A DNA stretch of 64,000 nucleotides from Gemmatimonadaceae bacterium (GTDB lineage: Bacteria; Gemmatimonadota; Gemmatimonadetes; Gemmatimonadales; Gemmatimonadaceae), in NCBI GenBank assembly GCA_045804245.1, contig JBJMNN010000196.1, positions 4,665 to 68,664 on the forward strand, written 5' to 3'. Both the position numbers and the translations under genes were made by a program. The notes beneath the pieces were generated by a model. That model saw only the letters and a program-made list of their open reading frames with translations, had not been told where the DNA came from and made no database searches. Positions 46,831 through 49,479 of the stretch are shown one piece after another. Each line of letters starts with the position of its first letter. Position 1 is the stretch's first letter.

Positions 46831-48279
46831 TCACGCCGTCACGATCTCGACGGCATGCAGCTCGGCCGACGCCCAATCGGCCACCACGAGGCGGTGGGCG
46901 TTGGTGTCGGCGACGTACGCGCCGCGCGAACCGATCGCGACGCCTCCTGGCTCGTGGAGCCCGCGCACCCACGTCGTGACACTTCGGTCGGCGCGATCGA
47001 GCCAGCGCAGCGAATCGTTGTAGGAATCGCAAACGAGCACGCGCCCGTCGGCCGCGACGGCGATTCCCTGCGGATGCTGCAGTCGCACCGTATCGCCGAC
47101 GCCGTCGACGTCGCCGAAGTCGAACAGCCCGGTTCCGACAATCGTGCGCACGCCACCCGCTGCAGCGAGGTCCACCTCGCGGACGGCGCTCGACTCCGCG
47201 TCGGCGGCGAGCAGCACATCGCCGGCAAGCGCGATCCCCATGGTCTGCGCGAGAGCCGCGTCGGCGTGCGGCCCATCGTGCAGCTCCTCGGCGCCACTGC
47301 CCGTGCGCTGGGAGGCCGTTCCGTCGCGGAGGTCGATCGTCCACAGCTGATGGATGCCAGCCATCGCGACGTGAAGCGTGTCGCCGGCGAGCGCGAGGTC
47401 CCACGGAGAGCTCAGCGCGCCCGCCGCGCGATCGCGTGCACTGCTAAGCTGGGTGCCCGTGCCGGCGATGATGCGCGTGGCGCCCGACGCGAGCGTGATC
47501 GCGCGGACGGCATGGTTTCCCGTGTCGGCGACGTAGAGCACGTCGTCGCCGAAGGCGAGTCCCTGCGGATAGCGAAACGCCGGCGCGTCGCCGTCTTCGA
47601 AGCCCTCGCGCCCGGAGCCGACGACGCGCTCGACACGCATGCGCAGGCCGTGCTCCTCGAGCCGTCCGACGAGAATGCGGTGATGGCCGGAGTCGGCGAC
47701 GGCGATGCGCTCGCCATCGACGGCGACCTTGCCCGGGTACGCGAGCTCCCGGGGCGCAACCGAGGGCGGCTCGGCGGGGAAGTGGAGCGGCCCTTCGCGC
47801 AGGGACCCATCGGCGCGCGCCGCCGCGACGACGCGCTCGATGAACGGCGTGACTGCATCGGCGGTGAACTCGCCGGCGCTCATTCCGACCACCGCGCCTC
47901 GTGGATCGATGGCGACGAGCGTGGGCCACGCGCGCACGGCGTAGGCGCGCCACACGCGGAACTGGCGATCGTTCAGGACGGGATGGATCGATCCGAGCCG
48001 GATGGACGCATCACGAATGCGCGACGTGTCGCGCTCGGCGATGTACTTGCCGCTGTGCACACCGACGACGGCGACGACTTCGGGAAACCGCTGCTCGAGC
48101 TCCCGCAACTGCGGCAGCACATGGATGCAATTGATTCAACCGTAGGTCCAGAAGTCGAGAAGCAGCAGCTTGCCGCGAAAGTCGCCGAGGGTGAGTCGTC
48201 GACCGCCGGTATGCAGCCAATCGAGCGTGTCGGGAAAGTCGGGGGCGCGCACGGCGGGGGAGGCGATCCGGTCTGACAT
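46831..48279 (-). CDS. Thioredoxin-fold plus NHL-repeat protein with an in-frame TGA (48136-48138) at the first position of the CxxC motif: candidate selenoprotein (482 aa if TGA is read as Sec)
   Basis: Track ORF 46831..48120 starts mid-domain. My codon-by-codon translation of the same frame upstream gives [67 protein letters not shown]…, with ATG at 48277-48279. NHL repeats follow ('[23 protein letters not shown]' and others). Confidence 0.6.
48099..48118 (-). ncRNA. SECIS-like hairpin GCUGCCGC-AGUU-GCGGGAGC, 17 nt downstream of the in-frame UGA
   Basis: Read directly from the sequence. A 3-bp plus 4-bp stem with one G.G mismatch and GU in the apical loop. The loop lies about 29-32 nt after the UGA. 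Confidence 0.4.
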
Positions 48280-48411
48280 GGCGATCCTGGTACGAGAGCG
48301 TCGAGCCGGCGACGACGAGAGCAGATGGGACCCAGCACAACGTGCACCACAAGCAGTCCCTACCGGTAGAGCCCGTCAGGTCGCGTCACGCGATTTGCTC
48401 TAGCTCAGGGC

Positions 48412-49479
48412 GTGGCCGCCACGCTCAACCCCCGGTACACGTTCCCGCAGTTCATCGTCGGTCGAAGCAACGAGGCAGCGTATGCCGCCGCCTCCGCCGC
48501 CGCCGTCGCGCCGGGTGCGCTGTACAACCCCATCCTACTCGCGGGGGGCACGGGGCTCGGCAAGACGCATCTCGCGCATGCGGTGACGGGAGAGGCCGCG
48601 CTGCGCGATCCGATGCGAACGGCGGAGCTTCTCACGGCGGACGAGTTCCTGCGCCGGCTTTCCGCTGCGGTGAGCGCGGGAACGCCCGAGCTGCTGCTCG
48701 ACGAGCTGGCGCGCGCGTCGTTGATCGTCGTCGACGATGTGCACGTCCTCGACCGGCACGCCACGGCGCAGGAAGCGTTGCTCTCGCTCGCGTCGCGCGC
48801 GCTCGCGGGGGCGAGACAACTCGTGCTGACGAGCGACGATGCCGCCGGCGCGAGTGCACTCGCACATCGGATCGTGCACCGATTCCGCACGGGGCACAGC
48901 GCGACGCTGGGCATCCCCGACTGGGCGCATCGGGTGGCCATCCTGCACGCGAAGGCGGCGATGCTCGGCGTCGATCTCCCGCCGAGCGTCGCGCACCATC
49001 TCGCGTCACAGTGCGAGGGGAGCGTGCGCGAGCTCGAAGGGAGCCTCACGCGCGTGCTCGCCGTCGCGTCGCTCGATGGCTCGACGCTCACGCTCGCGCT
49101 GGCGCGCCGCGCCGTGCCGACGCGCGTGGACCGCGGCGACGGCGAGAGCGCGCCGCACACACTGCTCGGCGCGCAGCTGGTGCAGGACGCGGTGTCGGCG
49201 GAATGGGGCGTGTCTCCGGACGAGCTGGTCGGCGCGGGGCGTTCGCGGCGGCTGGTGGAACCGCGGCGGATCGGAATGCTGCTCTGCCACGAGCTCCTCG
49301 ATCTGTCGCTGCGCGAGATCGGCGCGGCGTTCGGCGACCGCGATTCGTCGACCGTGCTGTCGGCGCTGGCGCGCGCGCGTGAGGATCTGGAGGAGAGCGT
49401 GTTGGTGGCGGAGCGCGTGGCGCGGCTGCGCCAGATGCTGCCGACGCCGGGCAACGCGCAGACGGCGGACGCGCGCTGA
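48412..49479 (+). CDS. DnaA paralogue consisting only of the AAA+ domain III and DNA-binding domain IV (355 aa)
   Basis: Track ORF, GTG start. The start coincides with the DnaA domain III entry motif 'LNPRYTFPQFIVGRSN'. Walker A 'GGTGLGKTHL', Walker B 'IVVDDVH', sensor II 'SVRELEGSL'. Domain IV 'PRRIGMLLCHEL…LREIGAAFGDRDSSTV'. Confidence 0.8.
   Translation: MAATLNPRYTFPQFIVGRSNEAAYAAASAAAVAPGALYNPILLAGGTGLGKTHLAHAVTGEAALRDPMRTAELLTADEFLRRLSAAVSAGTPELLLDELARASLIVVDDVHVLDRHATAQEALLSLASRALAGARQLVLTSDDAAGASALAHRIVHRFRTGHSATLGIPDWAHRVAILHAKAAMLGVDLPPSVAHHLASQCEGSVRELEGSLTRVLAVASLDGSTLTLALARRAVPTRVDRGDGESAPHTLLGAQLVQDAVSAEWGVSPDELVGAGRSRRLVEPRRIGMLLCHELLDLSLREIGAAFGDRDSSTVLSALARAREDLEESVLVAERVARLRQMLPTPGNAQTADAR

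Follow-up and report, generated by a model that had tools for sequence, protein, structure and literature searches.

An ORF interrupted by an in-frame TGA

We analysed a 64,000-nucleotide (nt) stretch of DNA from Gemmatimonadaceae bacterium (assembly GCA_045804245.1, contig JBJMNN010000196.1, positions 4,665 to 68,664 of the forward strand; 69% GC), hereafter called the window. Its minus strand carries an open reading frame (ORF) of 429 codons with a GTG start, and the same frame continues upstream of this ORF through a single TGA (48138..48136) and 47 sense codons to an ATG (48279..48277). A preliminary description of the window had proposed that both parts belong to one gene for a 482-residue protein in which the TGA encodes selenocysteine (Sec); the ORF, the TGA, the 47 upstream codons and the 482-residue reading frame were all confirmed in the sequence. 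The comparative analysis presented here indicates that 46831..48279 is very probably one gene, coding for a selenoprotein of the NHLRC2/SOQ1 family in which the UGA at codon 48 is read as Sec by means of a selenocysteine insertion sequence (SECIS) (features in Table 1).

NCBI splits this gene into MFL5619732.1 (47 aa, 'hypothetical protein') and MFL5619731.1 (429 aa, 'alkyl hydroperoxide reductase'), the kind of truncation that had been expected of ORF callers. The 47-aa fragment belongs to a 34-member cluster, the listed members of which are each found on 1 to 31 contigs. The name of the longer piece is backed only by a weak Pfam match to AhpC-TSA (32 bits), and relatives are named 'DNA-binding beta-propeller fold protein YncE' or 'sugar lactone lactonase YvrE' by JGI. 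The NCBI and JGI names for the window gene and its relatives are misleading.

In alignment, the relatives have a Met 9-11 codons ahead of a conserved VRAPDFP, matching the position of ATG 48279, and a Shine-Dalgarno (SD)-like AGGA lies just upstream of this ATG. If the TGA were a genuine stop, the locus would be a split gene with two products, the 47-aa peptide and a protein of about 429 aa initiated downstream. Gene callers and NCBI give exactly these two coding sequences (CDS), and a GTG is on hand at 48120. However, the split would fall in the middle of a redox motif, between beta1 and alpha1 of a thioredoxin (Trx) fold. Only 5 of 24 Sec-form relatives have GTG or ATG at the position of GTG 48120, and callers choose different downstream starts (called lengths of 414-430 aa among the database homologues). 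No SD-like sequence comparable to AGGA was read ahead of this GTG, and the hairpin described below would occlude initiation there. Termination would also leave unexplained why TAA and TAG never take the place of TGA as this stop, and why the stop lies exactly at the Cys of homologues. We consider termination at this codon highly improbable.

As a terminator, TGA is used by this gene, by three of the five neighbours confirmed with Pfam and by 10 of 24 genes of the Sec form; none of the five neighbours has an internal TGA. TGA is thus an ordinary stop in this organism and is recoded at this one site, and a genome-wide sense reassignment of TGA was ruled out on these grounds. The window was also scanned for further in-frame TGAs with coding-like flanks and a redox context, and only the reported site qualified.

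TGA and Cys codons in homologous loci

The protein was searched against 5.8 billion proteins and the best 120 matches (72-100% identity) were considered. In all but one of them (119/120) the called protein is 414-430 aa long and matches no more than the C-terminal 85-89% of the query, indicating truncation at the same place. The sole full-length match among these 120, P0104 (476 aa), is a Cys form.

The codon equivalent to codon 48 was determined in the DNA of 80 homologous loci from species-representative genomes, the last 20 of which were classified with a looser motif. This codon sits inside a conserved DFWTY(G/C)-x-INC motif and is TGA at 22 loci and TGC or TGT at the other 58. TGA was found at 12 of 12 Gemmatimonadales loci (55-64% identity to the window protein) and at ten Chloroflexota loci (seven Dehalococcoidia and one each from Ardenticatenia, Thermomicrobiaceae and Ktedonobacteraceae), all ten of them among the 20 classified with the looser motif. 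TGC or TGT was found in homologues of Longimicrobiaceae, Acidobacteriota, most Chloroflexota and other phyla. The motif of the Chloroflexota Sec forms is DFWTYC-U-(I/V/M)NC, that is, a eukaryote-like C-U-x-N-C. The preliminary description had suggested, from the window alone, that UxxC replaces CxxC in this protein, and the strict pairing of TGA with Cys across the aligned loci bears this out.

TGA was also present on contigs of closer relatives (up to about 89% protein identity), where callers predict a 47-aa ORF of its own directly ahead of the truncated gene. Altogether, more than 25 independent assemblies from two phyla have this TGA, with protein identities as low as about 44%. Over the 38 codons preceding the TGA, mean column entropy in 15 Sec forms was 0.46, 0.31 and 1.20 at codon positions 1, 2 and 3 respectively, a periodicity that indicates purifying selection on the translated sequence upstream of the TGA. 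Loss of the hairpin or decay of the upstream codons in close relatives had been named as grounds for refutation; the close relatives keep the hairpin, and their upstream codons are under coding-type constraint.

A lone in-frame stop in one sequence would normally suggest a pseudogene, and a nonsense mutation or a sequencing error had been put forward as the alternatives to Sec. A mismatch in the hairpin stem that is unique to the window (see below) would suit a pseudogene or an assembly error as well. Against this stand the same TGA in all of those independent assemblies, purifying selection on both flanks, and the intact synteny and full ORF. The comparative data effectively refute this explanation, the probability of which we regard as negligible.

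A conserved hairpin downstream of the UGA

The hairpin was first described as GCUGCCGC-AGUU-GCGGGAGC (48118..48099), starting 17 nt past the UGA. It is present in the window, but its outermost G-C pair (48118/48099) is unpaired in 17 of 22 relatives, and this eighth pair was rejected as not conserved. The supported stem is 7 bp long and begins 18 nt past the UGA. The distance from the UGA to the loop is 25 nt, inside the range (16-37 nt) that had been claimed for it.

To compare the element, 23 Sec-form sequences (22 distinct) from both phyla were aligned. The AGUU loop was invariant in the 22 distinct sequences, and all ten Chloroflexota TGA forms have an AGUU-loop hairpin at the same distance. 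Compensatory changes were present at three stem pairs (C-G/U-A/A-U at one, C-G/U-G/U-A at another, and G-C to C-G in locus L065 at the third). Cells in which both sides of a pair had changed numbered 19, compared to 4.9 expected from shuffles (none of 500 shuffles reached 19). Pairing in register was 89% of cells, compared to 34-66% with the 3' arm slid by 1-3 nt. The compensatory changes reach the encoded peptide. In L065 the stem-loop is UCCC-AGUU-GGGG and PQLR becomes SQLG, while in L034 a C-G to G-C swap gives CGCGC-AGUU-GCGCG and PQLR becomes AQLR; the helix is preserved in both cases.

The codons concerned (+8 to +11, PQLR) had a third-position entropy of zero in 15 Sec forms vs. 1.3-1.6 in 26 Cys forms. 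When a 27-nt segment was folded, the same hairpin was obtained in 15 of 15 Sec forms tested, with a minimum free energy (MFE) of -10.4 to -15.1 kcal/mol; over the same segment the Cys forms had a mean MFE of -3.5 kcal/mol and no common structure. A covariance model was built from the Sec-form hairpins. It scored 27 TGA-bearing sequences at 43-59 bits and the TGA form L034 at 28 bits, and Cys forms at 20 bits or less apart from two exceptions (L086 and L078, see below). The model found no second credible SECIS in the window, and an Rfam search of the window matched no family.

Published criteria for bacterial SECIS (bSECIS) elements are a loop of 3-9 nt on a stem of 4-16 bp, a G at loop position 1 or 2 followed by G or U, a distance of 16-37 nt from the UGA and an MFE of -7.5 kcal/mol or lower (PMC13188914, Fig. 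2 legend). The hairpin falls within all four: its loop has 4 nt and its stem 4 bp or more, the second loop base is a G with a U after it, the distance is 25 nt and the MFE is not above -7.5 kcal/mol. As in the bacterial SECIS consensus (bSECISearch model; E. coli fdhF/fdnG type), it is a stem-loop just downstream of the UGA, within the coding region, and its small apical loop has a G at position 2 followed by a U. It differs from usual bacterial elements in its compact 7-bp stem, in its strict AGUU tetraloop and in being conserved at the nucleotide level over two phyla. A bulged U, which we take to be typical of fdhF-type elements, is not part of the AGUU hairpin. Bacterial SECIS elements of different genes are generally dissimilar (PMC13188914), which makes the cross-phylum nucleotide conservation of the AGUU hairpin unusual. 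The proposal that this hairpin is a SECIS is upheld by its conservation, its covariation and its agreement with the published criteria.

Conservation establishes translation of the UGA but does not identify the tRNA that reads it. Instead of tRNA-Sec, a near-cognate or suppressor tRNA (for Cys, Trp, Arg or Gly) might decode it with the hairpin as a generic read-through stimulator, giving a full-length product that lacks selenium. In favour of this reading, no genes of the Sec machinery were seen in the window or in the related loci searched, and we found no literature on Sec in Gemmatimonadota. However, the 58 non-TGA homologues have strictly Cys at this position, the nucleophile site of CxxC, which is the classic Sec/Cys signature, and TGA is otherwise an ordinary stop in the window. 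The loop (G then U) and the spacing of the hairpin fit the SelB-type bSECIS consensus. The same element is found in Dehalococcoidia, carriers of the same recoded gene that are among the most selenoprotein-rich bacteria known (PMC13326102). Read-through by a tRNA other than that for Sec is, in our judgement, improbable, and decoding of the UGA as Sec is the reading followed below.

Cys forms with hairpin remnants and the origin of the Sec form

The two Cys forms with elevated covariance scores retain remnants of the hairpin. L086 (the locus of P0104, TGC) nests within the Gemmatimonadales Sec clade (clade support 100%) and is its only member with an altered 12-nt core, in which a synonymous TTG to CTG change turns the loop into AGCU. 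L078 (TGT), from the cultured Ktedonobacter robiniae SOSP1-30, is sister to the TGA form L034 (100%) and retains a degraded stem with a C.C mismatch. From their sequences, both look like recent Sec-to-Cys reversions. SECIS-like remnants following Sec-to-Cys conversion have been described previously (PMC1794560).

A neighbour-joining tree of 84 sequences was computed with the Sec/Cys column masked. All TGA-bearing sequences (25/25) fell in one 31-member clade that also holds six Cys forms, the bootstrap of this node being 40%. Bootstrap values were 100% for Gemmatimonadales with L086 and 95% for the Longimicrobiaceae Cys forms as their sister group; they were 100% for the Dehalococcoidia Sec forms, 95% for L014 with L065 and 100% for the Ktedonobacteria pair. 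Together with the identical SECIS architecture, the tree suggests that the Sec form arose once and was later transferred, or reverted to Cys several times.

Protein family and domain structure

The Pfam search was run with Cys substituted at residue 48. It gave a thioredoxin-like domain over residues ~11-140 (Thioredoxin_8, E 1.8e-9; AhpC-TSA; Redoxin), followed by NHL repeats (E 3.5e-26, 90 bits). Phmmer searches against the PDB matched the lumenal region of Arabidopsis SOQ1 (7DJJ, E 9e-91, query residues 8-436) and human NHLRC2 (6GC1, E 2e-77, query residues 11-470). The Trx domain alone matched M. tuberculosis DipZ (2HYX, E 2e-21) as well as ResA and TlpA (about 1e-8). Residue 48 aligns with the second Cys of the SOQ1 motif CCINC, which is the first Cys of CxxC. 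The homology to SOQ1 and NHLRC2 extends to both sides of the UGA and so counts for a single recoded gene.

In the AlphaFold2 (AF2) model of P0104, a Cys homologue that is 68% identical, the propeller has 24 strands in six blades with a predicted local distance difference test (pLDDT) score of ~90, and the Cys equivalent to residue 48 lies between beta1 and the N-terminus of alpha1. Foldseek ranked NHLRC2 and SOQ1 first; the propeller alone gave a template modelling (TM) score of 0.81 and a root-mean-square deviation of 3.3 A to NHLRC2 (6G7W). Judged by these sequence and model comparisons, the window protein is a member of the NHLRC2/SOQ1 family, with a predicted Trx-like domain and a predicted six-bladed NHL propeller.

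It shares with NHLRC2 (6GC1/6G7W) and SOQ1 (7DJJ) a colinear two-domain core, the same active-site context (DFWTY-x-[C/U]-INC) and the conserved cis-Pro. In the NHLRC2 and SOQ1 structures, the motif lies in a cleft facing the cup of the propeller (PMC6107167). Unlike these proteins, the window protein has Sec at the first Cys of CxxC, preceded by Gly (GUINC vs. CCINC), whereas the Chloroflexota Sec forms keep a Cys ahead of Sec (CUxNC). The domains of SOQ1 are redox-active and relay electrons by thiol-disulfide exchange, and its C-terminal domain (CTD) bears a second redox Cys pair that is required for function (10.1101/2024.11.01.621559). The window protein, by contrast, stops at residue 482 with the propeller and has neither the CTD nor this Cys pair. 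Most bacterial homologues are two-domain forms that lack the CTD (PMC6107167), which places the window protein in a two-domain bacterial subtype and does not exclude homology.

The Sec form of Ardenticatenia (L014:2995-4923) is about 642 aa long and aligns to SOQ1 through the CTD, up to chain residue 643 of 667. On this alignment, a full Trx-NHL-CTD selenoprotein is predicted to exist beside the two-domain Gemmatimonadales form. Cys forms longer than 600 aa are also numerous in other phyla.

The closest single-domain structural relatives of the Trx-like domain are the C-terminal domain of DipZ, TlpA and ResA. The active site of DipZ is SCINC (PMC6107167). Unlike the window protein, DipZ, TlpA and ResA are exported or membrane-anchored reductants (cytochrome c maturation, copper-protein assembly) and have no propeller. 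The window protein is probably cytoplasmic, as no HAD domain, transmembrane helix or obvious signal peptide was seen on inspection.

Table 1. Positions of the features of the split gene in the window and of the corresponding elements in related loci (locus:position)
Feature	Position	Strand	Basis or remarks
Complete CDS of the predicted selenoprotein	46831..48279	(-)	482 residues, predicted Sec48; conceptual translation
Terminal TGA stop of this CDS	46833..46831	(-)	
Inferred true start, ATG (Met1)	48277..48279	(-)	Equivalent Met in relatives; the 47-aa ORF of the callers begins here
SD-like AGGA	48285..48288	(-)	5 nt upstream of the ATG; direct sequence reading
In-frame UGA, codon 48, inferred Sec at first position of the U-I-N-C redox motif	48136..48138	(-)	TGA/Cys pairing in homologues
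Cys51, partner (resolving) Cys of UxxC	48127..48129	(-)	Invariant in the 41 Sec and Cys forms analysed by column
Publicly annotated truncated ORF, GTG start, 429 aa; no real gene boundary	46831..48120	(-)	ORF listing; NCBI record
Predicted SECIS element	48100..48117	(-)	5' arm 48117..48111, AGUU loop 48110..48107, 3' arm 48106..48100
Thioredoxin-like (TlpA/DipZ-type) domain, residues ~8-157	47809..48258	(-)	Pfam; PDB matches to DipZ, ResA and TlpA
cis-Pro119 of the Trx-like domain	47925..47923	(-)	W118-P119-T120 invariant
Six-bladed NHL-repeat beta-propeller, residues ~175-470	46870..47757	(-)	Pfam NHL; AF2 model of P0104; Foldseek
TGA in Chloroflexota Sec forms	L014:3133, L017:3139, L019:3112, L034:3112, L039:2973, L051:3115, L057:3106, L058:3136, L065:2738, L067:3139		
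Remnant SECIS hairpins in Cys forms	L086:1351-1400; L078:3112-3160		

Proposed decoding and catalysis

The decoding of the UGA, the catalytic role of Sec and the place of a substrate can be modelled on known bacterial Sec decoding and on Trx-fold enzymes. Translation would start at ATG 48279, and the ribosome would pause at the UGA (48138..48136). The hairpin 18 nt downstream, with its 7-bp stem and AGUU loop, would serve as the bacterial SECIS and, by analogy with characterised systems, would recruit SelB-GTP-Sec-tRNASec. Sec would be inserted in place of termination, and the ribosome would go on to translate what remains of the Trx fold and then the propeller. At the N-terminus of helix alpha1, Sec48 would occupy a site whose equivalent in NHLRC2 and SOQ1 lies in a cleft facing the propeller cup. 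Sec48 would make the nucleophilic attack in thiol(selenol)-disulfide exchange, Cys51 would resolve the intermediate, and the propeller may act as a substrate-binding platform.

What the computation shows is the in-frame UGA with its conservation and its pairing with Cys, coding constraint to either side of the codon, the conserved and covarying hairpin, and the family homology; the part of SelB and tRNASec, the catalytic role of Sec and the substrate belong to the model. Several points weigh against decoding of codon 48 as Sec, the support for which is computational throughout. The literature searched contained no report of Sec decoding in Gemmatimonadota. E. coli SelA, SelB and SelD served as tblastn queries on the window and every related locus, and ARAGORN was run on the window and 20 of these loci. 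No selA, selB, selD or tRNA-Sec was found in the window or in related loci totalling ~0.7 Mb, a tiny genome fraction that makes this result uninformative; ARAGORN gave no tRNA of any kind. The P0104 AF2 model is of low confidence in its Trx domain, of which only the order of secondary structures was used.

Two further points concern the hairpin of the window itself. The first is a G.G mismatch at its fifth pair (48115/48102), which had not been mentioned in the preliminary description; it is unique to the window among the 23 Sec forms, the closest relatives having U.G, and the upper four pairs and the loop are intact. The mismatch derives from a synonymous CTT to CTG change relative to the closest relatives. 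The second concerns folding, a check that had been suggested for the element. The 20-nt hairpin folds at -11.9 kcal/mol and the fold is shared by the Sec forms, but taken alone the window hairpin is no better than dinucleotide shuffles at 69% GC (z = 0.11). The fold of this single sequence being at chance level, the significance of the hairpin comes only from the comparison with relatives.

Relation to catalogued selenoproteins

Selenoproteins with UxxC in a Trx fold are a well-known kind. In the catalogued families (thiol-disulfide isomerase-like, Prx-like and thiol:disulfide interchange proteins), as in the window protein, Sec stands for the N-terminal Cys of CxxC and Cys homologues are widespread, and the best Pfam Trx match of the window protein (Thioredoxin_8) is shared with the thiol-disulfide isomerase-like family. 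Unlike the window protein, the catalogued representatives consist of a single domain (178-235 aa) and have no NHL propeller. BLASTP against them gave 21% over 116 aa (E 1e-06), no significant alignment, and 33% over 33 aa. No NCBIfam model scored above its cutoff, the best being ResA (48 bits vs. a cutoff of 170). The Sargasso 'thiol-disulfide isomerase-like' family was considered as a prior description and rejected, its representative in the deep-Sep supplement being an unrelated single-domain protein.

The strings FWTY and UINC were not found in the deep-Sep representative tables. Neither 'NHL' nor 'Gemmatimon' occurs in the main text of a 2026 review, Table 1 of which lists the known families, or in the papers on BSepDB and deep-Sep; Peng et al. 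2016 (with its supplements) and the Secmarker paper do not contain 'Gemmatimon' either. The literature search found no paper linking NHLRC2, SOQ1 or NHL proteins to Sec. As far as established, the Sec form of the NHLRC2/SOQ1 family is new in the catalogues that could be read, and it may have been described earlier under another name. The NHLRC2/SOQ1 assignment, the Gemmatimonadales lineage and the cross-phylum SECIS conservation are new to the same extent; the recoding mechanism is conventional.

A broader proposal takes the window gene as one copy of an uncatalogued Sec-NHLRC2/SOQ1 family, fixed across Gemmatimonadales and present in at least four Chloroflexota lineages. All members share one SECIS (AGUU loop, 25 nt past the UGA); on this view UGA and SECIS probably had a single origin as a unit, followed by spread between phyla or by repeated loss. 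We hold the chances of this proposal as a whole to be evenly balanced.

Neighbouring genes

An ATG-started ORF of 473 aa (46855-48276 of the window, (+)) runs antisense to nearly all of the selenoprotein gene; shadow ORFs of this sort are typical of GC-rich DNA, and this one is no gene. Around the selenoprotein gene lie genes for an aldo/keto reductase (convergent), a short DnaA-like AAA+ protein (divergent), a PD40 propeller protein and peptidases of the S41 and M1 types. Synteny of these neighbours is kept in close relatives, but they offer no hint of function. The divergent neighbour (48412-49479, (+)) encodes 355 aa with a Bac_DnaA ATPase domain and a Bac_DnaA_C helix-turn-helix, and is far shorter than canonical DnaA. 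This DnaA-like gene is syntenic with the selenoprotein gene in all close relatives.

Implications

Public databases hold many truncated ORFs of ~429 aa, named alkyl hydroperoxide reductase, YncE or NHL repeat protein, beside orphan 47-aa 'hypothetical proteins'; if the decoding of codon 48 as Sec is true, the two are halves of one selenoprotein. The NCBI record of the window gene is a case in point. The covariance model can be used to find further copies. The compensatory changes in the SECIS, which rewrite the peptide (PQLR, SQLG, AQLR), would be a clean case of RNA structure constraining protein sequence.

Human NHLRC2 underlies FINCA disease; to our knowledge it has no established biochemical activity and has shown none in classical assays. 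For SOQ1, reduction of methionine sulfoxide has been reported. Natural Sec substitution normally marks a catalytic redox Cys, and the Sec form therefore supports a catalytic role for the Trx-like motif of NHLRC2 and SOQ1. It would be a natural Sec/Cys marker pointing to the first Cys of C-I-N-C as the catalytic nucleophile, and a hyper-reactive natural variant that may be used for substrate trapping. Gemmatimonadales are a mostly aerobic soil lineage. The family implies that they decode Sec, and this would be the first evidence of Sec decoding by Gemmatimonadota.

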